DNA of 64,000 nucleotides from Patescibacteria group bacterium. GTDB lineage: Bacteria > Patescibacteriota > Patescibacteriia > JACRDY01. The notes under the pieces were generated by a model. The model searched no databases. It was not told the origin of the DNA and worked only from the letters and a program-made list of their open reading frames with translations. Position 1 is the stretch's first letter. Every line of letters starts with the position of its first letter. The DNA lies in NCBI GenBank assembly GCA_041650515.1, contig JBAZLA010000002.1:167659-231658 (forward strand). The letters are read 5' to 3'. A program made the position numbers and the translations under genes. Positions 8,275 through 58,927 of this stretch are shown piece by piece.

Positions 8275-9561
8275 TTAAACTGTTCTTTCTTTTAAAATTT
8301 TAGTCTCCGAACGCCAGTGCCGCCGTAACTGACCAGCTAAATAGAATGAACCAGTAACAACAATTAAATCCTGCGGTTTAGCTAATTTTAGAACCAGCTG
8401 CAGAGCCTTAACTGGATCCGGGATTACTTTCACTTTTTTGCTACAACCCATTTGTTTAGCTAACTGTTGGGGCGAATAACAATGACGCTGCGTCGAACGA
8501 TAACCAGTAACTAGGATTTGGTCAGCCACCTTTCTAATCCCGGCGGTGATTTCTTCCACCGGCCGGCCACTGGTCAGAGCAATAATAAAATATAACTTTT
8601 GGTATGTCAAACTTTTGATCGCGGCGAGTGTCGTTGTCATCTTCGAAGTATTATGAGCGCCATCTAGAACTATCAACGGCTTTTTCTGAACTATTTCTAA
8701 GCGGCATGGTAATTTAACTTTGACTAAACCGCGTTTAATTTTGATTAGACTAATACCCAAAAACTTGGCTACCGCTACGGCTAAAGCGGCATTATTCTGT
8801 TGGTGTTGACCCAACAAATTTAATTGATAAATCTGCTTAGCTGGTTGAATTAGATTGAATGGTACCTTATGTTGATGACAAGTTTGGCGAAAAACTGCCA
8901 AAACTGCTGGCCTTTGGGTAATGGTAAAAAAATGGGTTCCAGGTTTAATAATACCCGCTTTCTCAAAGGCAATCTTTTTTAAATTATGGCCTAGAATTTC
9001 AGTATGATCATAATCAATTAAATTAATCACTGTGGCCACCGCTGGGGGAATAATATTGGTCGCATCATAACGTCCACCCAAACCAACTTCAAGCACGACA
9101 TAGTCACACTTCTTCCGCCAAAAATAAAGCAAGGCCAAAGCAGTCCAAATCTCGAAATAAGACGGGCAGCCATAAGGTGAATGCGCAGTCGCCCAGTCGA
9201 TCATCGGTTTAAGCTCATTAACCAAATTAACAAAATCGTTCGGGCTAATTAACCGATTATCAATCTTTATTTTTTCAATCGCCGTGGTAATCTCCGGCGA
9301 AGTATACAATCCGACGCGATATCCCGCCTCGGTCAAAATAGACTGAATCATCGTCGCCACCGATCCTTTACCGCTAGTACCGCCAACGTGGATAAACTTG
9401 AGTTTTTTTTCGGGATTACCCAGTAATTTTAAAAAATAAGCTAAACGTTTCAAAAATAGTTCGCCCTGCTTATCGCCAACCAAGTAATCAAATTTAGTTC
9501 GCTGAAAAATTGAATCTAAGTATTGAAGTGCCGCTTGATATTTTTTTAGGTTTAATGCCAT
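8275..9561 (-). CDS. folC: Mur-ligase-family protein, FolC-like (folylpolyglutamate / dihydrofolate synthase-like)
   Basis: 428 aa. P-loop HVGGTSGKGS, and a DGAHN motif (LIVLDGAHNT) typical of FolC / Mur ligase family. Confidence 0.7.
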   Translation of the reverse strand: MALNLKKYQAALQYLDSIFQRTKFDYLVGDKQGELFLKRLAYFLKLLGNPEKKLKFIHVGGTSGKGSVATMIQSILTEAGYRVGLYTSPEITTAIEKIKIDNRLISPNDFVNLVNELKPMIDWATAHSPYGCPSYFEIWTALALLYFWRKKCDYVVLEVGLGGRYDATNIIPPAVATVINLIDYDHTEILGHNLKKIAFEKAGIIKPGTHFFTITQRPAVLAVFRQTCHQHKVPFNLIQPAKQIYQLNLLGQHQQNNAALAVAVAKFLGISLIKIKRGLVKVKLPCRLEIVQKKPLIVLDGAHNTSKMTTTLAAIKSLTYQKLYFIIALTSGRPVEEITAGIRKVADQILVTGYRSTQRHCYSPQQLAKQMGCSKKVKVIPDPVKALQLVLKLAKPQDLIVVTGSFYLAGQLRRHWRSETKILKERTV

Positions 9562-17211: not shown

Positions 17212-17321
17212 AAATTGTCCTCTCTTTCTTACTTTATTCTAGCATAATATTTTAATTTAGTTAAGCACGGATTAAACTTCCATTTTATCCTTTATAAAGC
17301 AATTGAGCAGATACAAAATAG

Positions 17322-17478
17322 TGGGGGTTTGGGGTTGGCACGGGGCAGAGCTGAGCTCCAACCGTTTCTGATTACGTCGAGGAGCGAGGCGGGTAAAACC
17401 GTAGGCAGACCAACAATACTTTACCCCTTGCCAACCCAAAAACTTTTTTGATTACTTTTTTGGTTACAAAAAAGTAAT
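17322..17478 (+). repeat. ~160-nt structured intergenic repeat, copy B
   Basis: GGGGGTTTGGGGTTGGCACGGGGC...TTCTGATTACGTCGAGGAGCGAGGCGGG...GCCCCTTGCCAACCCAAAAACTTTTTTGATTACTTTTTTGGTTACAAAAAAGTAAT. Confidence 0.8.
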
Positions 17479-30828: not shown

Positions 30829-32697
30829 CTAAAAATCAACCACTTTACCACCCTGATTACTAGCTCGCTTATCACTATACAAATCAGTCGTAACTGTCCC
30901 AACATACTTTTCAATAATTCGACCGGTGATTTTATCTTTGCCAGTAATCTTAATATCTTGAATAAGCGGCGCCAGTCTGCCGATCTGATCGACTCGAGGG
31001 GTCAAGATAACAGCAAAACCAGCTTGCGGCGCGATACTCAAATCACCGGCAAATTTGGCCACTTCCCCCGGTTGCCAGCTAATCTCGCGCGTAACCACAT
31101 CAAAGGCTTGGCTAGCGCCCTGACCAACTGATTCCTTGGCTAACCAAGTTACATTATTAGGCAAAGTACCAGACACTCGAATATCAGTGACGTCGTTGTA
31201 AGAATTTAAAATTTTACCCATGATCCAGTACTTAGTTTCGACACCAACTACTGGCGGCAACGGACCAATGCCTAGCTGTTCGCCCTCCAAAGTATAATAA
31301 CGAGCTAGAACAACCAGCTCTAAATTAGTAGTCATAATATTATTAATCGGAGATAACTCGGCGTCAAAAGCGGTTTTTTGGCCTTGGAACTCCAAAGTGT
31401 AATTAACTTTAGGCACTAAAGTTAAATAGGCCGGCGACTCCGAACCAATAGTTTTGGTCTGAGTTTTTATTTTAAATTTCACTTCACCACCTTGACCCGG
31501 CTCCAACCGAGCTAAATCGGGAAAATTATCTGGGTTGAGGATCAAGGTTTTACCCGTCAAACTAATCGACTGCTCGGTGCTAAAAGTGCTGACGTTATAC
31601 AATGGGTCAGATAAATCTAAAGTAATATTAACATTTTCAATCGTCTGGTTTTCCTGATTCGAATATTTAATCAAATATTCAACCTCTTCACCAGGTAATG
31701 GCGAATAATCAGCTAGACCATTGACCAGGGCCGCCACTAAAAACTTGGGGTAGAAGATATTAGTTGATAAAACAGCTTGATTAGCCAAAAGCGGTTGCTC
31801 TTGGTGATTACAAAAGACTTGGAAGGTAGTTTTAACTTTAACCGGCGACTCAGCCTTATCCGAATTAATTTTTCCCCGGACTTTGATCGCTTTAGTCTCG
31901 CCAGCTTCTAACGTAGCTAGCGACCAGGCGCCACTAATTACCTGGGTGTCAGAATTAATCAGCGTGAAGTCACTAGACCATTGTGGTATCAGCTTAATAT
32001 TATTCAATGGTTGAGAATAATTGTTTTGGATAACCAGATAAAAATCAAACGGGCTATTACTAGCGACCACCAACGGCGCCTCAACTTTTAGATCCAAAAC
32101 TGAACCTTCAACTTGGTAATTAGCCTGAGCGGTTCTTTCTTCAAACCAATTCATATCGCGGCCCGATACGGCCTGCTGATAATAATCCAGGCGAGCGATG
32201 ACTTTTTGCTTTGTTTGATATGGCGCCCAAACCTCGCCGGTTAACTCGAGCTGACCACCGGTTTTGGGCGGTAAATCGCCAATTAATAAAATATGCTTCT
32301 CTGGATCATAACGCTCGTCATTGGCTTTGATAAACACAAAATCAGCTGGCAAATTCATAACTATCCTAGCGGCCGTCAACTCCTGACTGCGACTAGAATT
32401 ATGGTAATAAACCGTATAAATCGTCTTGGCACCACTAAGCACTGGCTGACTGACACTAATATCTAGCTTAACTTGCAACGAGACCACCCACTTAGTAAAA
32501 ATAAAAGAAATAAACACATTAATCAGAATCAAACTAACAACCGCTAGACCAAGGATTAAATCCGCAATCAAATGCTTACGGTTATACTTATAACGAACTC
32601 GATAACGCCTACCCAGCCGCTCAACCGTAAAATTAAAAGGACCAATGACGAGCTGACGAATAATTTTTTTGTGGATATCCATATAATTGTGGTACAC
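30829..32697 (-). CDS. Membrane-anchored hypothetical protein (possible surface/adhesin-like beta-rich protein)
   Basis: 622 aa. The tracked start is GTG-encoded, and an internal ATG (MDIHKK) is plausible. TM helix LILGLAVVSLILINVFISFIF. No recognisable catalytic motif. Terminator at 30771-30803. Confidence 0.5.
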   Translation of the reverse strand: MYHNYMDIHKKIIRQLVIGPFNFTVERLGRRYRVRYKYNRKHLIADLILGLAVVSLILINVFISFIFTKWVVSLQVKLDISVSQPVLSGAKTIYTVYYHNSSRSQELTAARIVMNLPADFVFIKANDERYDPEKHILLIGDLPPKTGGQLELTGEVWAPYQTKQKVIARLDYYQQAVSGRDMNWFEERTAQANYQVEGSVLDLKVEAPLVVASNSPFDFYLVIQNNYSQPLNNIKLIPQWSSDFTLINSDTQVISGAWSLATLEAGETKAIKVRGKINSDKAESPVKVKTTFQVFCNHQEQPLLANQAVLSTNIFYPKFLVAALVNGLADYSPLPGEEVEYLIKYSNQENQTIENVNITLDLSDPLYNVSTFSTEQSISLTGKTLILNPDNFPDLARLEPGQGGEVKFKIKTQTKTIGSESPAYLTLVPKVNYTLEFQGQKTAFDAELSPINNIMTTNLELVVLARYYTLEGEQLGIGPLPPVVGVETKYWIMGKILNSYNDVTDIRVSGTLPNNVTWLAKESVGQGASQAFDVVTREISWQPGEVAKFAGDLSIAPQAGFAVILTPRVDQIGRLAPLIQDIKITGKDKITGRIIEKYVGTVTTDLYSDKRASNQGGKVVDF

Positions 32698-32781
32698 AGT
32701 ACTCAGTACATAGTACCTAGGAAGCCGCTAGTCTAGCGCTAATTAACTTCCTAAAGTACTGGGTACTATGTACTGGGTACT
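32692..32781. repeat. Heptad-periodic inverted-repeat hairpin element (GTACTNN arrays)
   Basis: Left arm gtacacagtactcagtacatagtacc. Right arm agtactgggtactatgtactgggtact. The arms are reverse-complementary. The inner loop taggaag...cttccta is itself palindromic. The element fills the whole gap between the stop of one minus-strand gene and the start of the next. Confidence 0.8.
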
Positions 32782-34793: not shown

Positions 34794-34996
34794 AGTGTTG
34801 TTACCTTTTTGAAGACAAAAAAGTAGCCAAAAAATCGCTGGGGCTCATAAGGCGCGACTCACTGTTCAACCTTAGTTCATCCTACCCATCCCGCTCCCAA
34901 GGAAAGATCAAAAAAGCCGGGACGGGACTACGCGCCATATTCGCCCCAGACCCCAATTATTTCTAAATGTTCAACGCGACTAAATAATTAAACTCG

Positions 34997-35155
34997 GCGG
35001 GGTTTGGGGTCGGCACGGGGCCGGAGCCGAGCTCCGACTCGTTCTGATTACGCCGAGGAGCGAGGCGAGTTAAACCTTCAGCGGGTAAACAACGCTTTGC
35101 CCCTTGCCGACCCCAAAACTTTTTTATGTTACTTTTTTAGTTATAAAAAAGTAAC
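34997..35155 (+). repeat. ~160-nt structured intergenic repeat, copy C
   Basis: GGGGTTTGGGGTCGGCACGGGGC...TTCTGATTACGCCGAGGAGCGAGGCGAG...GCCCCTTGCCGACCCCAAAACTTTTTTATGTTACTTTTTTAGTTATAAAAAAGTAAC. Compared with copy B, the T-to-C change in the 5' arm is compensated by A-to-G in the 3' arm. Confidence 0.8.
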
Positions 35156-39639: not shown

Positions 39640-41280
39640 TCAGGGCGCGTAGTTGGCCCGGACCATGTACTCCTCGGTCCACGCCGGGTTGGAGTAGTAG
39701 TCCTCCAGCCAAGCGTCGGAACATTCATCAAGCGGGAGCACGGTGGGCGGCGTGGTGCAGGACGACGCGTAGTACTCACCCAGACCGGCGGGGCTGGCCT
39801 TCCAACGGAGTTGGCTCCACTGTCCCAAATGGACGACGGTGAAGACTCCATTGATGTCCAACCCGCAGTCTTGGCAGTTGCAGATGAGCTGCGCCGCGAA
39901 GGGGTGCTCGTCGGTGCCGTTGCAGCGGTCACCCGGCGGGGTGCCCGACTCGGTCACCGCCACCAGGAATTCCACCGTCGCGCTGGCCGCGCCGCACGTG
40001 TCGATGAAGTACAGCCGCAGAACGTGAAAGCCGACGGTCAAAGAAGCGGTGCCGTAGTGGTACTCGTAGGGTCCTTCGCCCTGCGACCACGAGGAACAGA
40101 CAACCGTCGGGGGTAACAACGACGGCACATAGGCGCTGCCGTCCACGGCGAACTGCACCCGGCCGCGCTCGGTGACGCTGCTCAGGTTGCAGTCGGCGTC
40201 CAGGTAGTTGACCACAATGTCCAGGTTCGCGCCCTGGGCAAAAATGATCGGGTCGCTGGCCGGCACGCCGTCGACCAAAACCTGGTTGAGCCCGATGATC
40301 GGCGCCGTGTTGTCCTGGCACTCGGTGCTGATGGTGGTACATGAGTCGTTGCCCTCGTCGCACTGTTGCGTCAAGGGGTTGCACTCGTCCGGGCCGACGT
40401 TGACGCACTGGCCAACCTGGCACTCGTCCAAACCGTCGCACCAGTAGCCGTTGTTGCAGGCGCTGCCGTTGATCTTGTCGGTCCAGCCCGTGGGGTTGAG
40501 CCCGGGCTGGCACTCTTCGCACTGATTCAGGGGGTTGTCGTCCCCGGTCTGGTAGACGTACCCGCTGATCGTGCACTCGGTGGGCACAGGGATCAGATCG
40601 CATTCGTCGTTGCTTTCGTCACACACCTCGGTGATCGGATCGCACTCGTCGGGACCCACGTTGGCGCAGACGCCGGCCTGGCACTCGTCCAAACCGTCGC
40701 ACCAGTAACCGTTGTCACAAACCGCACCGTTGGGACGGACGGTCCAGCCCGTGGGGTTGAGCCCGGGCTGACATTCTTCGCAGGGATTCGCGGGGTTGAT
40801 GGCGCCGCTCTCGTAGTGATAGCCGTTGATGATGCATTCGTTGTCGTCGTCATCGTCGTCATCGTCACCCAACGGATCGCATTCATCCGCGGACTCGTTG
40901 CAAACCTCCGTGAGGGGGCTGCACTCGTCCGGCCCGACGTTCACGCAGTCGCCGGCCTGGCACTCGTCCGGGCCGTCACACCAATAGCCGTTGCTGCAAA
41001 CCGCACCGTTGGGACGGACGGTCCAGCCCGTGGAGTCGAGCCCGGGCTGACATTCTTCACAGGAATTCGCGGGGTTGATGGCGCCGCTCTCGTAGTGATA
41101 GCCGTTGATGATGCATTCGTTGTCGTCGTCATCATCCAGGGAGATGTCATCATCGGTGTCGCCACCGTTGTCGTCGTCATCGCCGCCGCCGTACTCGCAG
41201 GCGACAACGAAGCCGACAATCAGGAAAAAGAACAAGGCGACCAACAGTCCGTTGGTCAGGGGGGTTCTCGTCGTCTTCAT
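39640..41280 (-). CDS. Secreted Cys-rich lipoprotein with three tandem ~90-aa Cys-rich modules and poly-Asp linkers (GC-rich island)
   Basis: The ORF is tracked to 41307, but the RBS 'ggagg' lies 7 nt before the ATG at 41280 (MKTTRTPLTNGLLVALFFFLIVGFVVAC = signal plus lipobox). Repeats: NECIINGYHYESGAINPAN.CEECQPGL..TGWTVRPNGAVC.NGYWCDG.DECQAG.C.NVGPDEC. Poly-D runs DDDDNGGDTDDD and DDDDDDDD. The region is much more GC-rich than the rest of the window. Confidence 0.6.
   Translation of the reverse strand: MKTTRTPLTNGLLVALFFFLIVGFVVACEYGGGDDDDNGGDTDDDISLDDDDDNECIINGYHYESGAINPANSCEECQPGLDSTGWTVRPNGAVCSNGYWCDGPDECQAGDCVNVGPDECSPLTEVCNESADECDPLGDDDDDDDDNECIINGYHYESGAINPANPCEECQPGLNPTGWTVRPNGAVCDNGYWCDGLDECQAGVCANVGPDECDPITEVCDESNDECDLIPVPTECTISGYVYQTGDDNPLNQCEECQPGLNPTGWTDKINGSACNNGYWCDGLDECQVGQCVNVGPDECNPLTQQCDEGNDSCTTISTECQDNTAPIIGLNQVLVDGVPASDPIIFAQGANLDIVVNYLDADCNLSSVTERGRVQFAVDGSAYVPSLLPPTVVCSSWSQGEGPYEYHYGTASLTVGFHVLRLYFIDTCGAASATVEFLVAVTESGTPPGDRCNGTDEHPFAAQLICNCQDCGLDINGVFTVVHLGQWSQLRWKASPAGLGEYYASSCTTPPTVLPLDECSDAWLEDYYSNPAWTEEYMVRANYAP
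40300..41130. repeat. Tandem ~280-bp DNA repeats (3 copies; the two at higher coordinates are near-identical) inside the Cys-rich lipoprotein gene
   Basis: Blocks such as cgcggggttgatggcgccgctctcgtagtgatagccgttgatgatgcattcgttgtcgtcgtcatc occur at 40791 and 41071. accgttgggacggacggtccagcccgtgg occurs at 40726 and 41006. The period is 280 bp. Confidence 0.8.
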
Positions 41281-41337
41281 TTCGAAACCTCCGTTTGCAG
41301 AAGACATTACTCACTTCGTTTCTGTCGCTTCGGTGTT

Positions 41338-42888
41338 TTACCAGGAAATTACGATTCGTCCCGCGCCACCGAAATAGCGGGATTCATCGGTTACCAGGGG
41401 GTTATCAAAGTCGGGCGACCATTGTCGCCAGCCAAAGGCCGGTCCGAGCATCAGCCGAATCGGGTGTTGCCCGAAGAGCCAGTACTCATAACCGATACCC
41501 AGGCTGACAAATTGGTCAAGACCATACGGTCCGCCCTGACTGCCCAGACTCTCCGAGATGGCGTTGCCGCTCACCTCAAAGGCCAGATAGTGGGACGGGG
41601 TAATGGCCCAGGCCGCGCCAAGATGGCCGCTCCCAATGAGGGAGTTGTGATAGCCATACCCGACGTAGCCACCGACCCGAAGCACGTTGGGTTGTCCGGC
41701 GATGGTGAAATCGCCCTCAACCTCGAGAACGCCGAAACCGCTTGCGTGTTGCGCATTCGCGGTAACGACACCTCCAGCACCAACGTGCAGAAATTTCGGC
41801 CAAGACACAGTAACCGGAACAGGAACAAGAACAGGAACTTTTCCCGAGGGACGTTGCGTCCGCTCGGCTGCGAGTCGCTGACCCGATTCTGCCGTGTTAA
41901 GGGCAGCTTGGGCCCGGGCTCGCAGATCCGCAAAGTCATCCCCGGTGTAGATCCGGAGGAAGGCTTGGCCTCGGTCTTGAACCTTGGCCCAGTCTTTTGA
42001 CTTTACTGCGGCTTCAATCTCTTCGACCTCCTCTTCCGCCAGTTGGCGGTTGACTTGCCCCACCATCTCAGGCAGGGTGCCCCTGGTGATCACCAGGGCG
42101 GTGACCGCCGTAGGCGGAGTGAGGTCAGGCGGGGTAGTGGTGGGTTCTTCTGTCTCAGACGGCAGATTAGGCTCAGCCTGCGCCAAGACCCTTTCCGACC
42201 ACCGAGACGTCTCTGGCTCTGGGGCGTTAGTCACCCGGTAGCGCTCACCTGGCGGCGGCGCCGACACGGTGTACTCCCGATAGCCCCCTTGGCCGTAGAC
42301 AAGTTGGAACTCATCATTAAGCCAGTGAACTGCCGGGGTTGTACTAACGTCCCAGATCTCCACCCAAACTTCTTCTTCCAGCACATCGCTGCCCAAGGTG
42401 AGCATAATGGCCTCACCCTTGTACGGATATTCGGTCCACTGACCGTCCACCAGTACGCGGGCAATGATCCGACCGTCACGTGGTGTCTCCTTAAACCGCA
42501 GCTCTAACCGGTCGGAATTGGGCGGCGGGGTAAAGGTTCTGATGCACGGGCCGGCATCAATCGGTATTTCCGGCCCGTCATATCCGGCAGATTGCACCCG
42601 GATGGCCTCAGCCACGCCCAAATACCCGTAGAGCGTGACCTCCGCGACTTCGGTTACCGGTTTAGCCAGGATATGATGCCAGACCTGGTACTTGTACGTA
42701 CCGGCCGTGACTGTCGCTTTCCAGGGATGGTTGCTGTCAAATGGATGGCTCTCGGGATCCCTATTTCCCGGTCGCCACAACCTCAGCTCATACACGCCGT
42801 CAGGGCAGATTGCGCTGGTGGCGCATTGAATCCCGATCACGGGCGGTTTGAGTTTCGGTGGTGAACCGCGAGCAACCGCTTCCTCCAC
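41338..42888 (-). CDS. Putative outer-membrane beta-barrel-like protein (GC-rich island); start uncertain
   Basis: 516 aa as tracked, but the start is actually GTG-encoded. An in-frame upstream extension encodes KTKGKFLIAVFLLLIFGSV (signal peptide) with an AGGAGG RBS near 42945, so the true start is probably non-canonical and upstream. The C-terminal ~180 aa are rich in alternating G/Y/aromatic beta-strand residues and end in ...GRIVISW (OMP-like C-terminus). Confidence 0.5.
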   Translation of the reverse strand: MEEAVARGSPPKLKPPVIGIQCATSAICPDGVYELRLWRPGNRDPESHPFDSNHPWKATVTAGTYKYQVWHHILAKPVTEVAEVTLYGYLGVAEAIRVQSAGYDGPEIPIDAGPCIRTFTPPPNSDRLELRFKETPRDGRIIARVLVDGQWTEYPYKGEAIMLTLGSDVLEEEVWVEIWDVSTTPAVHWLNDEFQLVYGQGGYREYTVSAPPPGERYRVTNAPEPETSRWSERVLAQAEPNLPSETEEPTTTPPDLTPPTAVTALVITRGTLPEMVGQVNRQLAEEEVEEIEAAVKSKDWAKVQDRGQAFLRIYTGDDFADLRARAQAALNTAESGQRLAAERTQRPSGKVPVLVPVPVTVSWPKFLHVGAGGVVTANAQHASGFGVLEVEGDFTIAGQPNVLRVGGYVGYGYHNSLIGSGHLGAAWAITPSHYLAFEVSGNAISESLGSQGGPYGLDQFVSLGIGYEYWLFGQHPIRLMLGPAFGWRQWSPDFDNPLVTDESRYFGGAGRIVISW

Positions 42889-42958
42889 TGACCCGAAGAT
42901 CAGCAGGAGGAAGACGGCTATCAGGAACTTTCCTTTGGTCTTCGTGACTTCCTCCTTT

Positions 42959-44014
42959 CTAGAAGCGGTAACCGACCCGGAACATCACCCCGTAGGGGAT
43001 GGTGACGCGCGTAACGTCTTCCTGGGCCGGGCTCTTGGACTCGAACTGGAGTCCGCAGTTGGGGCCAACACCCCAGATCAGCCGATCGTCGAAGTGACGG
43101 CCAACCAGGCCGGCGTTAAGGATCGGAAACCCCCAGCGATCGGTATGGTTGCCGTGCTCGACTTGGAACCACCGCGAGGTGATCCCAGCTTCGAAACCGG
43201 CCCAGCTCTCGCCGAAAATACGGTACCCGCCACCGACCTCGGTGTCGAGACCCGCATGTTGGTTGGGGCCCAACCCGCCGTGGAAGAAGAACTCGTGCCT
43301 TCCCCACAGCAGGTCAAACCCGCCTTCGGCGATGAAGTAGGAGTAATTGCCGTTGCTGTCCATGTAGGTTTGGTAACCCGCGTACAGCAGAGCGCTCACC
43401 CCGTCGCCGCCGCTCGCACCCGCAGCACCCGGTCTGGCGGTCGGCATGAAGATCCGCGAGATGATGCCTTGCGGGCTATCCCGGTTCTCCACCCGAACTT
43501 CTTCATCCGGATCAACCGGTTCGATCTCAACGTCCGCAATCCCGCGGCCACGCTCACCCGGAGCGCCAGCCGCACCGCTGGTCGGCGGTTTGCGAACATA
43601 AATCCGAACCACCCGGTTTTTGTTGCGGAAGTTCCCGTCGGCATCGCACAAAGTTTGTGCCTCGGGGAGACCAGCCTCAATCTCAACTCGCTTTACCTCA
43701 GTTGCCCGCAGGTGAGCGAGTTGGCCGTTGCCGGTGAAGCCGCTGGTTTCGCCGTGGTAATCGGCGTAACCAGTAAACTTCACTTCCCAGCCCGGGTAGT
43801 CGGACCTAATCTTGGCGGCGACCGCCTTCAGCTTATCCATCTGTGCCTGACGCACATTGGACGGAAAAGCTTCCGGCAATCGCCACTCGTTGATCGTAAA
43901 ATCGGCGGTGGCGTGGATCAGGATCCACCCATCGCCGGCCTCTGCCGTTTTGGCACTTGCCAGGATGGCGAGCGCCACGATGGACAATGCCACCGCCAAC
44001 AGGATTCTTCGCAC
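42959..44014 (-). CDS. OmpA/MotB-like peptidoglycan-binding domain protein with C-terminal beta-barrel-like region (GC-rich island)
   Basis: 351 aa. Signal peptide MRRILLAVALSIVALAILASAKTAEA. OmpA_C-like motif FTGYADYHGETSGFTGNGQLAHLRATEV...NRVVRIYV. The C-terminus ...MFRVGYRF ends in Phe like diderm outer-membrane proteins. Confidence 0.6.
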   Translation of the reverse strand: MRRILLAVALSIVALAILASAKTAEAGDGWILIHATADFTINEWRLPEAFPSNVRQAQMDKLKAVAAKIRSDYPGWEVKFTGYADYHGETSGFTGNGQLAHLRATEVKRVEIEAGLPEAQTLCDADGNFRNKNRVVRIYVRKPPTSGAAGAPGERGRGIADVEIEPVDPDEEVRVENRDSPQGIISRIFMPTARPGAAGASGGDGVSALLYAGYQTYMDSNGNYSYFIAEGGFDLLWGRHEFFFHGGLGPNQHAGLDTEVGGGYRIFGESWAGFEAGITSRWFQVEHGNHTDRWGFPILNAGLVGRHFDDRLIWGVGPNCGLQFESKSPAQEDVTRVTIPYGVMFRVGYRF

Positions 44015-48980: not shown

Positions 48981-49013
48981 ATTTTGTTTTTATTTAATTA
49001 TTTATTACTTAAT

Positions 49014-50062
49014 TTAATTTTCTTCCAGCCGTTCAAAAAAATCAGCCGTAATCACCATCAGAGCCGTCGCTACCGGAATAGCTAATAAAATCCCGATCAA
49101 ACCACCAATCTTAGCGCCAATCATTAGGGCAATGATTGTCACTACTGGATTAAGCCCAACGGCCCGCCGCATAACCTGGGGCACCAGAATATTATTTTCT
49201 AACCACTGCATCACAACATAAAAAATCAAAACAAACAAAGCTAACGACGGTGAAACGGTAAAAGCGACAAAAATCGCCGGGATAGCCGAAAGAATCGGCC
49301 CCAAATATGGAATAAACTCACCCAAAAAAGCGATCAAAGCTAAGACCAAAGCAAACTGACGCATAGTTGGATCAATAAAACCAAACCCGTTCATGCCAAT
49401 AAAAACTAAACAGCCAACAATTAATGACAGAACCACCTGTCCTCGCAGCCAGAGACCGATTTTATCTTTAACCTTGTAGATCAACTGAGTCAAATAAGGC
49501 TGATATTTAGCCGGCGCCACCAGCCGCAGGATTCTTTTAACCGCATTTTCTTCGACAATAATATAAAAAGTAATAACCAAAATGACACAAAAAGAAATTA
49601 CCCCGCCAAAAATGCTAATCACAGTTGATAATACACTCTGACCGCTGTTTTCTAAAGTTAGCTGCAACGATTTTAAGCTCTGCTGAATACTGTCGCCTAA
49701 TCCATGCTGACGAGAATAGTATTAATATTAGATAAACTAGTATCAATCTTCTGCCAATAAGCCGGAAAATTGGAAGAAAACTTCTGAATCTGGTTAGAAA
49801 CTAACGGCACAAATAAAATAATAACTAAACTGATCAAAACGATCAGCGTTAGATAAATCGTCAAAACGCTGACCCAAGCCGGTATCCGATGGCGCCGAAG
49901 CCAGCTAACCAGCGGATCAATAGCCGAAACAAAGATTAAAGCCACAAATAAAATAATCAAAATCCCTTTGATCAAATACAAAAACCATAATAACAAAATT
50001 ACGGCCACGATTTTAAAAATCGAAGAAGTGGAAAGCTCAATTTTGACCTTTTGGTCCGGCAT
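49014..50062 (-). pseudogene. AI-2E family (UPF0118/PerM-like) transporter, interrupted by a frameshift
   Basis: The N-terminal 121-aa ORF (49697-50062) and the C-terminal 217-aa ORF (49014-49667, PYLGPILSAIPAIFVAF motif) together make one ~345-aa AI-2E transporter. The downstream reading frame stays open across the junction (RQHGLGDSIQQSLKSLQLTLENS) but in a different frame from the upstream ORF. That means a single frameshift, or a sequencing error. Confidence 0.55.
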
Positions 50063-50193
50063 AGTAATTTGCTCTAATTATACAAAAAATAAAGCAAAAT
50101 AACAACTTAACCAACCAGCATCCCACTTCTTAGAGAATTGACAAAAACTGATAATCAGTTAATATTATCTTAACCTCAAATAAGGAGTTGCCG

Positions 50194-50457
50194 GTGAGTA
50201 ACAAAAGTTTTGCTATCTGCATGGCTATTGGCGCTCTGATCATCGTCCTACTGTTCTGGGTTACTGACTGGGGACAACACCCCCTCTTCGGCACCCTGGG
50301 CGGTGAAGAAACAGCTTCCACCCCGGCGATAGCCGCGCAGCCAGAGCCAGCCGATTCACCAAGGCCTGATGGTGGCAGCCAAACAACCGAACCAGAATGG
50401 GTCCTGGGCCAAGAAATAGTGGTCCACGGCCGTCGATCAGACGCAAAAACTCAATAA
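50194..50457 (+). CDS. Small membrane-anchored hypothetical protein (GC-rich islet)
   Basis: About 88 aa. RBS aaggag, then a probable GTG start at 50194 (the tracked ORF starts with TTG at 50188). TM AICMAIGALIIVLLFWV. Pro/Glu/Ala-rich tail. Own intrinsic terminator at 50474-50498. Confidence 0.35.
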   Translation: MSNKSFAICMAIGALIIVLLFWVTDWGQHPLFGTLGGEETASTPAIAAQPEPADSPRPDGGSQTTEPEWVLGQEIVVHGRRSDAKTQ

Positions 50458-50473
50458 CCAGGAGGACGCAACT

Positions 50474-50498
50474 AGCGGTTTAGCCGCTTTTTTTTATT
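50474..50498 (+). terminator. Intrinsic terminator after small GC-islet gene 1
   Basis: agcggtttagccgct-tttttttt. Confidence 0.7.
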
Positions 50499-50554
50499 GA
50501 CAGCCGCATATCCATTATTTAAAATATAGCCAACTATCTCAGGAGGATTTTTTT

Positions 50555-50998
50555 ATGAAGCGGACAACTAGCGCGATGTTGGTGATCTTGGCTGGAATGG
50601 TTTTGCTCCTGGTCAACGGACAGGAGCGGTCAGATTACATCAACATGCAGAGCAGTGATAACGCTAATGACAGCAGCAGTATCGCCATCCGATCTATTGG
50701 TCAATCGGCTACCGAGACCGAGACTATCCTGTCGGAATTGGATGTAGTCGTCACCTGCATCGATGCCTATAGCGTTGCCTACTGCGACTGCAGCGCGGAC
50801 ACGCTGTTGACCGAGGAGATGGAACGAGCAGTAGAGCTCTGTGAAACCGGTCATCCGGCCTACGGCGGTGTCTACCTGCAATGTATCATCGACCACTACG
50901 ATGATGCTGATTGTCAGGAGTTGATGGACTGCCTGGAAGAAGTCAGTCAGCCCTATGCTCCAGTGACATTTTCTCCCACCAAAACCACCATCGGGTAA
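50555..50998 (+). CDS. Small secreted Cys-rich hypothetical protein (GC-rich islet)
   Basis: 147 aa. RBS aggagg 7 nt upstream of the ATG. Signal peptide MKRTTSAMLVILAGMVLLLVNG. Ten Cys in the mature part. Own terminator at 51022-51046. Confidence 0.5.
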   Translation: MKRTTSAMLVILAGMVLLLVNGQERSDYINMQSSDNANDSSSIAIRSIGQSATETETILSELDVVVTCIDAYSVAYCDCSADTLLTEEMERAVELCETGHPAYGGVYLQCIIDHYDDADCQELMDCLEEVSQPYAPVTFSPTKTTIG

Positions 50999-51021
50999 CA
51001 GCCAACGCGCTACTACCTCTA

Positions 51022-51046
51022 ACGGGACCTTCCCGTTTTTTTTATT
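51022..51046 (+). terminator. Intrinsic terminator after Cys-rich GC-islet gene
   Basis: acgggaccttcccgt-tttttttt. Confidence 0.75.
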
Positions 51047-51162
51047 GGCTAAATATCCACAATTTAATCTAAAAATCTATTGACTTTTTTATAAAAATAT
51101 TCTACAATTTGATGTCCTTAATTCTAAGGACAAACCGAAAACAACCGCGTAAAGGAGGGTAC

Positions 51163-51789
51163 ATGAACGCGGATGGTCCTAGTTCGACCGAACGGCAGTT
51201 GCGGTTACTTCGCTGGGTGATTGCCCTGAACGTCCTGGCGACAGTAATCGAAATCTTCGGCTTCTGCCAGACATTCAGCCTGGCAGTAGTCGTCAATGTA
51301 GTCATGGGGCTGGTAGATGCCAGCGCCTTGGGCCTCAACTACTACGGTAGGAGGCTCGAGGAAAAAAACGGCCAGCGCAAGGCCAAAGAGGACCGGGCGA
51401 AAAAAATCGCCCACTACTCCAATTTGGCTATCGGTGCCATTTGCCTCGCACCCATGATTTCCGCGGCGTACCGGCTGTACGTCAACCAAACAACCGGCGA
51501 GGTCTTGCCGTTCAACGGCACTCTGATCATGCTGGTTGCCGGCCTCGGACTGCTCTGTGATGGGATCTCCCTTAAGATCTATCCGGAGCAAAACGGCAAC
51601 GAGAGTTCGCCGAATATCCGGTCTGGGAAGATCAAAGTGATCAACGGGGTTGTTAGTTGCGGTACCTCGTTTATCACTGGCGCCATCATCTGGCGCTTCG
51701 GCTTCCATTGGCTGGATTCAGTCGCCGCCATCGGCGTCGGTGGCTTCATCCTGTGGTTGCTCTGGGACGAATTCCGGAACAATCACTGA
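51163..51789 (+). CDS. Polytopic membrane hypothetical protein (GC-rich islet)
   Basis: The tracked ORF starts at 51109, but the RBS aaggagg precedes the ATG at 51163 (MNADGPSS...). Four to five TM helices. No family recognised. Confidence 0.5.
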   Translation: MNADGPSSTERQLRLLRWVIALNVLATVIEIFGFCQTFSLAVVVNVVMGLVDASALGLNYYGRRLEEKNGQRKAKEDRAKKIAHYSNLAIGAICLAPMISAAYRLYVNQTTGEVLPFNGTLIMLVAGLGLLCDGISLKIYPEQNGNESSPNIRSGKIKVINGVVSCGTSFITGAIIWRFGFHWLDSVAAIGVGGFILWLLWDEFRNNH

Positions 51790-51799
51790 TCACCAACCT

Positions 51800-51834
51800 T
51801 GGCCTAAGCTAACCACGCTGCGGCCTTTTTTTAT
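51800..51834 (+). terminator. Probable terminator after GC-islet membrane protein gene
   Basis: ggcc...cacgctgcggcc followed by tttttttatt. The stem is weaker than the others. Confidence 0.4.
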
Positions 51835-51839
51835 TGATT

Positions 51840-51938
51840 AGTACACAGTGCAGAGTACTATAGTACACAGTAACTTATAACCCAGCGACGACAGATTTTA
51901 GATTTCTATGGACTATGTACTAGGTACTGTGTACTATT
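51840..51938. repeat. Heptad-periodic inverted-repeat hairpin element (AGTACNN/GTACTNN arrays)
   Basis: Left arm agtacacagtgcagagtactatagtacacagta. Right arm ctatgtactaggtactgtgtactat. Lies between the GC-rich islet terminator and smpB. Confidence 0.7.
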
Positions 51939-51950
51939 TCTTGGTATAAT

Positions 51951-52424
51951 ATGATTACTTCTATGCCCATTCTTGCTGACAATAAAAAAGCCCTTTTTGA
52001 CTACCAAGTCGTTAAAACTTGGGAAGCGGGTTTGATTTTGACTGGCCAGGAGGTCAAATCTGTTCGCAATAAACAGCTTAGCCTTAAAGAATCTTACGTG
52101 GTTATTAACTTAACCGCTAACCGGTCGCCTCAAGCTTATCTGCTCAACTGCCATATCTCGCCCTACAAAATGGCCGGCCACTTAACTGGCTATGATCCGA
52201 CTCGCACTCGCCGCCTCTTATTACACCAAAAAGAGATCAATTCGCTTTATGGCCAAGCGCAGCAAGCTGGCTTGACATTAATCCCCTTACGAGTGTATAC
52301 TAAGGGAACTAAAATTAAAGTTGAAATTGGCTTAGTTAAAGGAAAAAAACAGTTTGATAAGCGAACGGCCATCAAAAAACGTGAGGTCGACCGCGAACTC
52401 CGCCGTAAATTGAAAAATATCTAG
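51951..52424 (+). CDS. smpB: SsrA-binding protein SmpB
   Basis: 157 aa. DYQVVKTWEAGLILTGQEVKSVR and the C-terminal basic tail (KREVDRELRRKLK) match SmpB. tmRNA lies directly downstream. Confidence 0.9.
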   Translation: MITSMPILADNKKALFDYQVVKTWEAGLILTGQEVKSVRNKQLSLKESYVVINLTANRSPQAYLLNCHISPYKMAGHLTGYDPTRTRRLLLHQKEINSLYGQAQQAGLTLIPLRVYTKGTKIKVEIGLVKGKKQFDKRTAIKKREVDRELRRKLKNI

Positions 52425-52543
52425 TTCTTTATGTGGACCTGTCCCCCTGTTTCGGCGCATCTTAAATTGATAGAACCACAAAGTGAGGCGCCAGCCGCTC
52501 CCACTCCTAAGGTTTTTAAAATGCTTAAGGTGAATGGAAATGG

Positions 52544-52941
52544 GGGGATGACGGGTTTCGCTAGGAAGATTATTGATTAAACTAGGCAAGTCGAGCTAGT
52601 ACTCTCGTAAAACAGGCTAAAAAATATAAGTGCCAACTTATACAACAAAGCCAAACAAGCAGTAGCTTCGCTATTTGCTGTTCCGGCCTTTGCTCCAGTC
52701 GTCGCCTAATTGCGTACGACTCATCGGTCCCTGATGTCTAATAGGGGTTTTACCGGTGTTATACCTTAGACTAGATAAACCGGACGGTCTGGGGCCGTTT
52801 ATCAAAAATTACCAGACTAGGTAAGCTCGGGTTTTGTCCGTTTTCCACTTAGCTGACCGAACCAAACCAAATGTGACTACGCTTGTAGAGCTAGCTTATT
52901 CAACTTTCTAGACGTGGGTTCAACTCCCACCATCTCCACCA
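52544..52941 (+). ncRNA. ssrA: tmRNA (ssrA)
   Basis: 5' end GGGGAUGACGGGUUUCG pairs with the 3' acceptor strand CAUCUCC-A-CCA. tRNA-like T-arm GGGTTCAACTCCCACC. CCA is encoded. Directly downstream of smpB. A candidate tag ORF ends ...AFAPVVA-TAA, but the frame is not verified. Confidence 0.85.
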
Positions 52942-53057
52942 CGTAAAGTCGCGCCTTTGGCGCGACCACGTGGCGCAGCCACGAGGCGACGAAGTCGCTT
53001 TACGTGGTGCCCCGTGTTCCGTGTAGCGGAACTTTACGGGGCGAGACAAGAGTAATT

Positions 53058-56089: not shown

Positions 56090-56914
56090 TTAGGTTGTTT
56101 TTTTGTTTCTAAAAAATTGAACCAACCAAAATACCAGGATACCAACAAAAATTATTGCCGAGACCAATTGCGCCCAACGCACGCCAAAAACCACTGGCGA
56201 GCTATCCAACCGCAAAAACTCCATATTAAACCTAACTACCGAATACAGCAGCAAAAAGCTCAGGGTAATATTTCCTCTACTCACCCATCTTTTATCCTCT
56301 GTCCGGCCTAATCTCCGACGATGCAGGAGCATCAACACGCCAAATACTATCAAATCAAGCAAACTCTCATACAAAAACGTCGGGTGAAAATATTCAAAAT
56401 TCTGATACGCCGCTGGTCGGTTAAACCAACTGATACCAATCCCCCAAGGTAGATTGGTTGGCCGACCAAAAAGCTCCTGATTAAAATAATTACCCCACCG
56501 ACCAATAGCTAAACTCAGCGGCACGGCGGTCGCTATGATATCAGTTAATAAACCAAAAGAATATTTCTTCTGTCGACAATAAAAATACAAAGTTACTAAC
56601 GCGGCAATAATGGCACCATGGATGGCTAACCCACCCCGCCAGACCTTGATCACCTCCGACAAATGCTGGCTATAATATTCCCAAGAATACAAAACATAAT
56701 AAATCCGCGCACCGATTAGGCCAAAAATGATTAAATAAAAAAACAAATCATAGGCCTGGTTGACTGGTAAACTATACTTTTTGAATAAATAAACCACTAC
56801 TGCTAACCCAGCCAAAAACCCCAAAACTACCAACAGACCATACCAGTGGATGTTAACCGGCCCGAGGCTTAGTAAAGTCGGCGAAGGATAGTAACTATGG
56901 AACCAACTAATCAT
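56090..56914 (-). CDS. lgt: Prolipoprotein diacylglyceryl transferase
   Basis: 274 aa. VNIHWYGLLVVLGFLAG...GARIYYVLY...WRGGLAIHGAIIA...GRWGNYFNQELFGRPT are Lgt signatures. Confidence 0.85.
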   Translation of the reverse strand: MISWFHSYYPSPTLLSLGPVNIHWYGLLVVLGFLAGLAVVVYLFKKYSLPVNQAYDLFFYLIIFGLIGARIYYVLYSWEYYSQHLSEVIKVWRGGLAIHGAIIAALVTLYFYCRQKKYSFGLLTDIIATAVPLSLAIGRWGNYFNQELFGRPTNLPWGIGISWFNRPAAYQNFEYFHPTFLYESLLDLIVFGVLMLLHRRRLGRTEDKRWVSRGNITLSFLLLYSVVRFNMEFLRLDSSPVVFGVRWAQLVSAIIFVGILVFWLVQFFRNKKTT

Positions 56915-57560
56915 TTTTTTGTACCGCGATTAGATGCAAAATCTGCTGATTTAAACTCTGCCAACTGCTACCCAAGTTCTGCTCATTAATAAAAATAGCT
57001 GGCGCACTAGTCGCCCCTCGACTAGTAGCTTGTCCAGAATCAGCCGAGACGACCCTAGCAGTCGCCTGACTATCTAGACACTGATTAAAAACTGTCATTT
57101 CCAGACCTGAATCCTGGGCATAGCGTTTCAGATTATCACTACCAAAGGCCGGCGCTTTACGGAAGAGTATATCTGCATAAGGCCAAAACTTGTTCTGCTG
57201 ATTGGCGCACTCAGCAGCGATCGCAGCTAAAAAAGTATCATTACTCAACGGCAAATAGCGAAAATCTAGTCTCACTTGATCGCCAAAAAGTTGTTGAATT
57301 TTTTTTATCTCTTCGGTTGCCTGTCGACAATGAGGGCAACTAAAATCAACGTATTCAGTAATCACGATCGTTGCCTCCTTGCCGCCCAAAAAAGGCCGAT
57401 CGGTTTGTACTAGATCTTCTTGACTGGTTTTCACCGGCACCTTGCTACTAAGCCAAATTAAGGTAACAAAAATCAGGGCTAAGGTAATAAAAAAAATAAA
57501 TTTAGTCTGGGGTTTAAGCATAGCTGTGATCAGTATAGCAAAAACTGGATTGATTTTCAA
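56907..57560 (-). CDS. DsbA/thioredoxin-fold thiol:disulfide oxidoreductase, membrane-anchored
   Basis: 217 aa. TM anchor, and the CxxC active site FSCPHCRQ. Confidence 0.7.
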   Translation of the reverse strand: MKINPVFAILITAMLKPQTKFIFFITLALIFVTLIWLSSKVPVKTSQEDLVQTDRPFLGGKEATIVITEYVDFSCPHCRQATEEIKKIQQLFGDQVRLDFRYLPLSNDTFLAAIAAECANQQNKFWPYADILFRKAPAFGSDNLKRYAQDSGLEMTVFNQCLDSQATARVVSADSGQATSRGATSAPAIFINEQNLGSSWQSLNQQILHLIAVQKND

Positions 57561-57586
57561 AAGTACACTAAAAAATATAAACCCAG

Positions 57587-57746
57587 CGGGGGCTTGGGGG
57601 CAAGCTAGGCGCTAAGTCCCGCCCCGGCCTTTTCTGATTACGCCGAGAGGCGGGACGGATAAGGCAAACCGTTGACTAACAATGAATTGCGCCTAGCTTG
57701 CCCCCAAAACTTTTTTTGATTACTTTTTTAGTTATAAAAAAGTAAT
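57587..57746 (+). repeat. ~160-nt structured intergenic repeat, copy D
   Basis: GGGGGCTTGGGGGCAAGCTAGGCGC...GTCCCGCCCCGGCCTTTTCTGATTACGCCGAGAGGCGGGAC...GCGCCTAGCTTGCCCCCAAAACTTTTTTTGATTACTTTTTTAGTTATAAAAAAGTAAT. Perfect 17-bp closing helix. Confidence 0.85.
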
Positions 57747-57832: not shown

Positions 57833-58483
57833 CTAGTTTGGGCGGTCAGGATTCTGACGGCGTGCGCGGATTTTGTCCGCGTCAGCCACCAGATGCGCCC
57901 AGTAGGCGTGCCACCTCTCCAGCCAGATAGGGCCGTGTTCCCGGATCAGTCCAACCCCGCCGATCGAGGCCGCAAAGATCACGGTGAAAAACGTCCAGTC
58001 CGGCCAGAAGCCGTAAAGCCACGCCGGCGCGAAACGCCAGCAAGACAGCACGGCAATGGCGAAGAAGAACACCGGAGTTCCCAGCCAGAAACCGACGAAC
58101 AACCGGAAGTCATGGCTAGTGTGAATCACTACCCACTGGTAGATGTGGGAACGTCGCCAGGGGCGAGGCGACCATATCTTTTCCGTTGTTCGATGCAACT
58201 TCGGCCCATGGTAAGGCCGAATGAGCAGAACCAGACCGATGACCGTGGCGATGGCGCCAACGATAATCTGGTAGCTCCAGCCCTGCGGAGGCCGTGGCTC
58301 GCCCAGAACACCGGTCCAGTGGCTCCAAGCCACATAGACCAACCACAGCAACATCCCGCCGCCGAGGCTGAACCAGAAACCGACCGTCTGCTGCTTGTTC
58401 AGTTGCTTGGACACAGTAAACCTCCTTGCTCGATGATTGAGCGTAGGGACTACTCTTGGAACTGATTTATTGTACGCTACCAT
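57833..58483 (-). CDS. GC-rich polytopic membrane hypothetical protein
   Basis: 216 aa. Trp/Arg/Pro-rich, with about 4 TM helices. Composition by eye is clearly GC-richer than its neighbours. Flanked on both sides by copies D and E of the ~160-nt repeat. Confidence 0.45.
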   Translation of the reverse strand: MVAYNKSVPRVVPTLNHRARRFTVSKQLNKQQTVGFWFSLGGGMLLWLVYVAWSHWTGVLGEPRPPQGWSYQIIVGAIATVIGLVLLIRPYHGPKLHRTTEKIWSPRPWRRSHIYQWVVIHTSHDFRLFVGFWLGTPVFFFAIAVLSCWRFAPAWLYGFWPDWTFFTVIFAASIGGVGLIREHGPIWLERWHAYWAHLVADADKIRARRQNPDRPN

Positions 58484-58545
58484 TTTTTATAATTACTGTC
58501 AAGCATAAATTCAAAACCACTTTCTAAAAATCTAAGAAAATAAAC

Positions 58546-58705
58546 CCGGTTGGGGTCTGGGGAGAATACGGCGCAAAGTCCCGCCCCAACCTTTTCTGAT
58601 TACGCCGAGGGGCGGGACGGGTAGAACGATAAAAAGTTGAACAATGAATCGCGCCTTATGAGCCCCAGAGCTTTTTTGTTACTTTTTTGGCTTCAAAAAA
58701 GTAAA
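58546..58705 (+). repeat. ~160-nt structured intergenic repeat, copy E
   Basis: TTGGGGTCTGGGGAGAATACGGCGC...GTCCCGCCCCAACCTTTTCTGATTACGCCGAGGGGCGGGAC...TTGAACAATGAATCGCGCCTTATGAGCCCCAGAGCTTTTTTGTTACTTTTTTGGCTTCAAAAAAGTAAA. Shares the TTGAACAATGAATCGCGCCT(C/T)ATGAGCCCCAG block with copy A. Confidence 0.85.
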
Positions 58706-58904
58706 GAGGCTTCGTAGATGGGAAAGAGATCCTTCGCTTCGCTCCTGACACATGGGTCAGGAGCTACACTCAGGATGACGAATTAAAAAATTCTCAATGA
58801 CAACAAAAAACGGCCCCCTCGGACCGTTATTTTGAAATCTTGCTTTTTTTCTTGTCCTTCGGCTCCGCTCAGGACAGGCTTTATTGCTTTTTCAATTCTA
58901 TAAA

Positions 58905-58927
58905 CTCTGTACTGTGTACTAAGTACT
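58905..58927. repeat. Single-arm GTACTNN heptad array fused to the ppsA stop codon
   Basis: Coding strand: ATG AAA TAG TACTTAG TACACAG TACAGAG. Nearly identical to the sequence after the dprA stop. Confidence 0.6.

Follow-up and report, generated by a model that had tools for sequence, protein, structure and literature searches.

A GC-rich islet upstream of smpB in a Patescibacteria genome, probably acquired, encodes a cation diffusion facilitator-like protein with an altered metal site

Three small plus-strand genes (g1, g2 and g3; 87, 147 and 208 aa, together spanning 50194-51789) form a GC-rich islet of ~1.65 kb at 50188-51835, between an AI-2E family transporter gene and smpB, in a 64,000-nt stretch of a Patescibacteria group bacterium (assembly GCA_041650515.1, contig JBAZLA010000002.1, forward-strand positions 167,659 to 231,658; this whole stretch is hereafter called the window). 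Where did these genes come from, and do they form a toxin or bacteriocin-like locus with membrane partner proteins, as a preliminary description of the sequence had proposed? The explanation that we favour, and consider probable, is that the islet was acquired, that its three genes are unlinked envelope genes and that g3 is a repurposed variant within the family of cation diffusion facilitators (CDFs).

When g3 was compared with PF01545 (Cation_efflux), it scored 39.5 bits (cut-off 26.6), and the match covered profile positions 4-193 of 198, that is, the membrane domain only. The score against TIGR01297 of NCBIfam (50.9 bits) was below the cut-off of 82.35. An AlphaFold model built with the alignment of the clade described below (pLDDT 86, pTM 0.79) showed six helices, not the four to five transmembrane segments first counted. 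When this model was searched with Foldseek, the 36 best PDB matches, which reached a TMq of 0.74, comprised only CDFs, namely YiiP, SLC30A10 and ZnT1/3/4/7/8. No match to PF16916 (ZT_dimer) was obtained and the cytoplasmic C-terminal domain is absent; the open reading frame (ORF) ends two residues past the sixth transmembrane helix (TM6), and the terminator stem begins 12 nt after the stop codon. The plasmid CDFs that matched g3 (25-28% identity) were full-length proteins of 296-320 aa.

In an alignment with E. coli YiiP, M48 and D52 of g3 corresponded to D45 and D49, and K158 and G162 to H153 and D157. The site-A quartet of g3 accordingly reads M48 and D52 in TM2 and K158 and G162 in TM5, with one of the four metal ligands kept. 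The TM2 Asp (YiiP D49) and the TM6 Asp (YiiP D185) are both retained. A published survey lists the quartets HD-HD, ND-DD, DD-DD, DD-HD, EN-HD, HH-DH and HD-ED, none of which contains Lys (PMC5703985), and the A-site is described as conserved throughout CDFs (PMC8341793). Since the quartet is replaced by [M/T/V/I/L]D-K[G/S] in g3 and its closest relatives, g3 is probably not a canonical Zn/Co/Cd exporter. From the alignment and the model, we infer that K158 would occupy the metal position and pair with D52. A basic residue mimics the cation in the ion site of two LeuT-fold carriers, ApcT (Lys158) and CaiT (Arg262); K158 of g3 may by analogy supply a tethered positive charge at a cation site, although fold and family differ.

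An exhaustive HMMER search with g3 returned 75 proteins at E <= 1e-3 among 1.84 billion representatives. Thirteen further short proteins or fragments, taken from those matches and a follow-up profile search, formed a clade with g3 (n = 14). The full-length members are 183-216 aa long, and identity to g3 within the clade is 22-37%. In a joint alignment, the TM5 quartet positions held Lys plus Gly or Ser in 14 of 14 members, and the TM2 positions held [M/T/V/I/L] plus Asp in all 12 members that cover TM2. By contrast, the ordinary CDF matches in the same alignment carried an HD-HD-like quartet in 25 of 25 cases. S154 and K158 were invariant in the clade, N45, N59 and P141 were nearly so, and D52 was conserved; conservation of the replacement residues argues for a working rather than a dead site. 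The two groups were also separated by the clade profile, against which no member scored below 169 bits and no ordinary CDF above 67 bits, and by PF16916, which was present in the ordinary CDF matches and absent from the clade members. No relative of the g3 subgroup was found among 185,579 GTDB species representatives or in viral contigs. The clade is small, rare and previously undescribed.

The genomic settings of the clade members differed. The closest full-length relative (P0004; about 204 aa from its true start at L008:7950, 37% identical to g3) is encoded by a gene with a GC content at third codon positions (GC3) of 0.755 in a low-GC genome, with neighbours of GC3 0.30-0.45 and further GC-rich genes close by, an MFS permease gene among them. 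The same pattern, a GC-rich clade gene in a low-GC genome, was seen in L007. Other members were found on contigs of 49-55% GC and had a modest GC excess or none, except in L093, where the CDF-like gene had a GC3 of 0.75 against 0.54-0.70 for its neighbours. No conserved neighbour of the clade gene, and no adjacent gene resembling g1 or g2, was found across seven other contexts; the neighbours seen included Nramp, MFS, ftsW/rplY, rpsP, dnaJ and efp. At L008 9782-12076 and L007 639-3999, the clade gene is adjoined by GC-rich genes for MFS permeases and by small genes without assignment. In L008, a gene for a tyrosine recombinase is found 1.2 kb upstream.

The composition of the islet set it apart from the surrounding genome. 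The 41 host genes of the window had a GC content of 0.422 +/- 0.030 and a GC3 of 0.417 +/- 0.040, from which the GC3 of the three islet genes deviated by z = +2.4 to +7.8 (Table 1). Synonymous codon usage of the islet correlated with that of the host at r = 0.35, whereas single host genes compared with the remaining host genes gave a mean r of 0.90 and a minimum of 0.71. When compared with the other GC-rich islets of the window, at 39640-44014 and 57833-58417, the islet gave r = 0.84 and 0.68. The GC3 values and codon correlations together indicate that the deviation is real, synonymous and common to the islets, so the atypical GC content noted earlier was borne out.

The insertion site was examined at smpB loci taken from GTDB species genomes and Joint Genome Institute (JGI) metagenomes, in each of which the AI-2E gene was then located. 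In seven relatives (L014, L015, L101, L103, L104, L107 and L109; SmpB 56-59% identical) the site was empty, the AI-2E gene and smpB adjoining in divergent orientation with a spacing of 53-334 bp. The atypical composition and codon usage, taken with the seven empty sites, support the earlier view of acquired cargo, and the islet is best described as a putative horizontally acquired insertion in the divergent AI-2E/smpB intergenic region. A different 2-kb insert occupied the same site in L013, a Falkowbacteria metagenome-assembled genome (SmpB 64% identical) in which the left-hand synteny is kept. This insert carries three plus-strand genes, each for a protein that begins with a membrane anchor and continues with a poly-acidic linker and a Cys-rich domain, and two of the three proteins are paralogues of each other. 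No similarity between the insert proteins and g1 or g2 was detected by BLASTP or phmmer, so the resemblance is one of architecture only. The AI-2E/smpB spacer is thus a place where genes for envelope proteins have landed repeatedly in this lineage, and g1-g3 are one such filling. The host genes of L013 have a GC3 of 0.56-0.71, which makes higher-GC Patescibacteria plausible donors; this fits the report that most transfers in Patescibacteria are intra-phylum (PMC12455944). The locus was rearranged in L012 and L099 (SmpB 72% identical), and no relative closer than 72% SmpB identity was present in the GTDB or JGI collection.

Islands of horizontally transferred genes are common in Patescibacteria, with cation transport among the transferred functions reported (PMC12455944). 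The islet resembles them as an atypical segment between conserved genes of an ultra-small genome. It differs in its very small size (1.65 kb), in the absence of mobility genes, in the separate promoter and terminator of each gene and in a common 3' tail, T7-8 ATTG[AG]. A tmRNA-targeted island was rejected, as neither an integrase nor direct repeats were found and the islet lies upstream of smpB; no tRNA or tmRNA 3'-end target was found, and the islet is not at the tmRNA 3' end. No integrase was recognised among the window ORFs, of which only ~13 were domain-scanned. An integron cassette array was likewise rejected, the ORFs having their own promoters, the 3' hairpins being short T-run terminators and no attC site being present.

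The genes to the right of the islet (smpB, tmRNA, a GIY-YIG gene, infC, rpmI and rplT) are co-oriented with it, so that the opposite polarity first described holds for the left-hand genes and not for the right-hand side. The AI-2E gene, described as frameshifted, is indeed split in this window by one missing A at 49719, but it is intact (349 aa) in ENA ERZ27247363 and Logan SRR8542065. These two assemblies come from the same population and, this base apart, are 100% identical to the window over 12-20 kb. The indel reflects an error of assembly or else a minor variant. An assembly chimera at the islet was ruled out, the two other assemblies being identical apart from this one base. The long hairpin at the right border sits between the last terminator of the islet and the smpB promoter; it is of host type and outside the cargo, and its motif recurs at 32691-32781, 37547 and 58904-58920. 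For smpB itself, an extended -10 promoter, TGGTATAAT (51940-51965), seems to drive the gene and ends at the annotated ATG 51951, so the start is probably ATG 51963, with a very short leader.

Within the islet, each gene proved to have a strong Shine-Dalgarno site, as had been described. The mechanically called TTG start of g1 at 50188 abuts an AAGGAG site that leaves a 5-nt spacer before GTG 50194; g1 therefore most plausibly starts at this GTG, and the resulting 87 aa equal the gene calls of two other assemblies. In g2, the ATG follows an AGGAGG placed 8 nt upstream. The start of g3 is preceded by AAGGAGG, and its 208 aa are also the length annotated by NCBI. Near-consensus sigma-70-type promoters (at least 10 of 12 matches) were scanned for in the region 49000-53000 with shuffled controls. 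Twelve promoter-like sites were found in these 4 kb, compared with 5.9 +/- 2.1 expected from the shuffles, and three of the five on the plus strand fall 29-55 nt upstream of the start codons of g1-g3. Textbook terminators had been placed at 50474, 51022 and ~51800. The first two (T1 and T2) deserve the name; the third (T3) does not, since its stem is interrupted, and it is weaker than the others and was missed by the rules of the terminator scan. From these signals, g1, g2 and g3 are predicted to be transcribed independently of one another, since every gene comes with a separate promoter, ribosome-binding site, ORF and terminator. The 5' leader of g3 gave no Rfam match at E <= 1, and a riboswitch upstream of g3, including a metal riboswitch, was ruled out on that result.

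Table 1. Positions of the islet genes, their predicted signals and the flanking features (window coordinates)
Feature	Position	Strand	Description
AI-2E family transporter gene (left flank)	49014..50062	-	split by 1-nt deletion at 49719
Promoter-like P1, for g1	50138..50165	+	TTGACA-16-TAATAT, 10/12 matches; -10 ends 29 nt before GTG 50194
g1	50194..50457	+	87 aa, one N-terminal hydrophobic segment, acidic Pro/Glu-rich tail; GC 0.553, GC3 0.511, GC3 z = +2.4
Terminator T1	50474..50496	+	6-bp GC stem (50474-50488), 3-nt loop, T8, then ATTGA; textbook
Promoter-like P2, for g2	50497..50525	+	TTGACA-17-TAAAAT, 11/12 matches; -35 box overlaps T1 tail
g2	50555..50998	+	147 aa, N-terminal signal/anchor, acidic 7-Cys C-terminal domain; GC 0.525, GC3 0.642, GC3 z = +5.7
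Terminator T2	51021..51045	+	7-bp stem (51021-51037), 3-nt loop, T8, then ATTGG; z = -2.1; textbook
Promoter-like P3, for g3	51080..51108	+	TTGACT-17-TACAAT, 10/12 matches
Leader hairpin of g3	51113..51132	+	8-bp, in predicted 5' leader (fold)
g3	51163..51789	+	208 aa, predicted six-helix CDF fold, no C-terminal domain; GC 0.557, GC3 0.727, GC3 z = +7.8
Terminator T3	51801..51832	+	interrupted 4+3-bp stem (51801-51825), T7, ATTGA; -10.5 kcal/mol, z = -1.8
Long hairpin (right border)	51838..51936	.	AGTACAC-like 7-mers; -31.4 kcal/mol, z = -3.2
smpB (right flank)	51951..52424	+	followed by tmRNA 52544-52941

The sequence TTTTTTATTG[AG] occurred five times in the window compared with 0.5 expected, and four of the five copies lie behind GC-rich genes, namely g1, g2, g3 and the 555-aa gene of the islet at 39640-44014. 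The other clean terminators found by our own scan of the window had tails that differ from TTTTTTATTG[AG]. A further sequence, ATATCCAnnATTTAA, was present in exactly two copies, just after T1 and T2. These shared 3' modules fit either descent from one origin or duplication of a regulatory module; together with the common codon usage, the 3' modules of the GC-rich islets point to one source.

Profile searches assigned g3 to the Pfam CDF family and gave no family for g1 or g2. The single-pass, Pro/Glu-rich peptide of the preliminary description agrees with g1, which in its 89-aa TTG form has a pI of 4.67, one hydrophobic segment at residues 2-30 and a tail with 7 Pro and 6 Glu. The search with g1 covered Pfam, NCBIfam, PADLOC and PHROGs as well as all ORFs of the window and of the fetched loci, and g1 matched only itself; large protein collections were outside this search. 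The product of g2 had been described as a secreted 147-aa protein with 10 Cys. Its length and an N-terminal signal or anchor (residues 2-24) were confirmed, but the number of Cys is 7, at positions 68, 77, 79, 96, 110, 120 and 126. A linker rich in Ser, Asn and Thr connects the anchor to an acidic C-terminal domain; the protein has a pI of 4.05, with 24 Asp/Glu against 6 Lys/Arg, and 2 His. Among 5.8 billion proteins, a k-mer/HMMER search with g2 found only g2 itself, and no meaningful match was obtained in plasmids, viral contigs, Pfam, NCBIfam, PADLOC or PHROGs. A single-sequence structure model (pLDDT 47) was too poor for use. An anchor, an acidic stretch and a Cys-rich domain are found together again in the L013 insert and in the 555-aa product of the islet at 39640-44014, which suggests that proteins built in this way form a class at the cell surface, most likely with disulfide bonds.

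The comparison of g3 with known CDFs underlined how far it departs from them. As in the family at large (PF01545; YiiP/FieF, CzcD, ZitB and ZnT/SLC30), the six-helix membrane fold is predicted and the Pfam score is above the cut-off. However, g3 lacks the cytoplasmic C-terminal domain, carries MD-KG instead of HD-HD or DD-HD and falls below the TIGR01297 cut-off. ZnT6 (SLC30A6) is a eukaryotic CDF with a degenerate transport site that keeps its C-terminal domain and acts with ZnT5. It shares with g3 the presence of non-canonical site-A residues in a CDF fold, but the g3 clade shows a conserved Asp/Lys/Ser/Asn replacement and not mere loss. CDFs that lack the C-terminal domain are summarised as having an N-terminal tail rich in Cys, Asp, Glu and His, a proposed metal chelator (PMC8341793, citing Kolaj-Robin et al. 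2015). Like these proteins, g3 ends right after TM6; unlike them, it has no metal-chelating N-terminal tail, since the first 18 residues (MNADGPSSTERQLRLLRW) contain one Asp, one Glu, no Cys and no His. The reviews on that class do not report loss of the site-A quartet.

In the explanation that we favour, foreign DNA would have been inserted between the AI-2E transporter gene and smpB, at a site that also hosts other cargo in the lineage. It would have supplied three independent units, each encoding a cell-envelope protein. In g3, the tethered Lys would pair with Asp in place of a metal ion, and Zn/Co/Cd-proton antiport would be lost. The protein may instead move, or be gated by, another species, for which a proton-coupled monovalent ion or a small solute is the best guess. 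The three genes would not be one functional system, but would have been captured separately from a similar GC-rich source.

Could the islet instead be a working metal-resistance or homeostasis cassette, in which g3 exports a divalent metal while the surface protein g2, and possibly g1, binds or buffers it? The CDF fold of g3 and the 7 Cys, 2 His and 24 Asp/Glu of g2 would suit such a role, and plasmid CDF genes occur in metal-resistance clusters. Moreover, the clade member in L094 is divergently paired with an Nramp gene, and that in L006 lies within about 5-7 kb of genes for an ArsR-type regulator and CorA, which leaves room for a metal-related role. However, only one of the four site-A ligands is left, and Lys stands at the His position in all clade members. 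Neither the C-terminal domain nor the metal-rich N-terminal tail known from CDFs lacking that domain (PMC8341793) is present in g3, and Rfam showed no metal riboswitch before it. A g2-like gene was beside none of the other clade members in the seven contexts, and g1-g3 are predicted to be transcribed separately, so that we regard such a cassette as unlikely. The degenerate quartet is also what would be expected if g3 were a CDF-like subunit that transports nothing itself but pairs with a canonical CDF from another locus and modulates it, much as mammalian ZnT6 is reported to pair with and modulate ZnT5. CDFs work as dimers, according to PMC5357649. The conservation of D52, S154, K158, N45 and N59 across a clade only 22-37% identical to g3 argues against this role, as does the absence from g3 of the C-terminal domain, a contributor to the dimer. 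Nor did a canonical CDF come to light in the 64-kb window, where no systematic scan was made. A modulatory subunit thus appears distinctly unlikely.

The small secreted and membrane proteins of an acquired islet would also be in keeping with a bacteriocin or toxin locus, with g2 as the secreted toxin and g1 and g3 providing immunity or export. Yet g2 is strongly acidic, its N-terminal hydrophobic signal or anchor is of an ordinary kind, it lacks a bacteriocin leader, whether double-glycine or of another type, and it matches no family in Pfam, NCBIfam, PADLOC or PHROGs. The same four collections revealed no exporter (ABC/C39 or other), peptidase, modification enzyme or immunity-type gene in the islet. 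The supposed membrane partner g3 has a CDF fold, not one of immunity or export, and no clade member in the seven contexts has a g1- or g2-like neighbour. No relatives of g2 were found on plasmids or in viral contigs, while the plasmid matches of g3 were ordinary CDFs; a toxin locus is extremely improbable. A native, fast-evolving surface-protein locus, with a high GC content caused by amino-acid composition or local mutation bias, would account for the same architecture (anchor, acidic linker and Cys-rich domain) at the same site in L013, and Asp, Glu, Gly, Pro and Ala have codons whose first two positions are GC-rich. However, the excess is strongest at third positions (GC3 0.73 in g3 compared with 0.42 in the host) and in synonymous choice, and the site is empty in seven relatives. 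The nearest relative of g3 also has a GC3 of 0.755 in another low-GC genome while being only 37% identical, which is hard to reconcile with vertical descent within low-GC genomes. We judge a native origin to be very unlikely.

Some observations nevertheless weigh against an acquired islet with a repurposed CDF variant, in addition to the Nramp, ArsR and CorA neighbours in L094 and L006. The proteins g1 and g2 have no homologues in the collections searched, and their roles are read from composition and topology alone. The Asp-Lys pairing is drawn from the YiiP alignment and the model. Integrase and transposase genes and flanking direct repeats were not found in the islet. The closest relative, L012, is rearranged at this locus and does not fix the timing of the insertion.

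Apart from the smpB islet, the window contains further GC-rich segments and repeated elements. The first islet (39640-44014, minus strand) comprises three genes with a GC content of 0.59-0.63 and a GC3 of up to 0.83. Its 555-aa protein combines a lipobox-like anchor with a poly-Asp stretch and three Cys-rich repeats of ~87 aa. The last residues are ...VISW in the 516-aa protein and ...GYRF in the 351-aa protein; the latter also carries a signal peptide and matched OmpA weakly (E = 8.6e-4). These two proteins have outer-membrane-protein-like features, whereas the phylum Patescibacteria is thought to lack an outer membrane. A DsbA-like gene is located at 56907-57560. The third islet (57833-58417, minus strand) is a single gene (GC 0.60, GC3 0.75) whose product is a 194-aa His/Trp-rich membrane protein with no family match; its codon usage is like that of the other islets. 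This gene is flanked by two copies of a structured intergenic repeat of ~150 nt, which is present in four minus-strand copies (~17290-17470, 34966-35146, 57556-57736 and 58518-58698). The apical loop of the repeat, CGGCGTAATCAGAA, is invariant, and its stems are nested, 9 of their 29 predicted pairs showing compensatory changes; no Rfam match was found for it. Long intergenic hairpins made of inverted tandem 7-mers were observed at 51838-51936, 32691-32781, 58895-58925 and 37547, and the 7-mer motif AGTACACAGT had 16 matches compared with 1.5 expected. Hairpins of the same architecture with other 7-mers were seen at comparable places in relatives, at L013 4037-4170 and L104 465-700, and L008 has hairpins of this architecture at 7730-7870, 8635-8750 and 9462-9560. 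They appear to be a lineage-wide class of elements.

Islands of foreign DNA have already been documented in Patescibacteria, and the islet itself is ordinary for the phylum. What is new is a coherent CDF-like clade that breaks two features regarded as near-universal in the family, the four-ligand site and the C-terminal domain, while conserving a new Asp/Lys/Ser/Asn set. It is conceivable, and we offer this only tentatively, that the xD-K(G/S) proteins are a distinct functional offshoot of the CDFs, with a tethered Lys in place of the metal and a changed substrate or coupling ion, and that they circulate among ultra-small bacteria of low GC content as a GC-rich mobile unit of one gene. If the site of g3 is functional, the clade would be a natural experiment on the repurposing of a metal antiporter scaffold.

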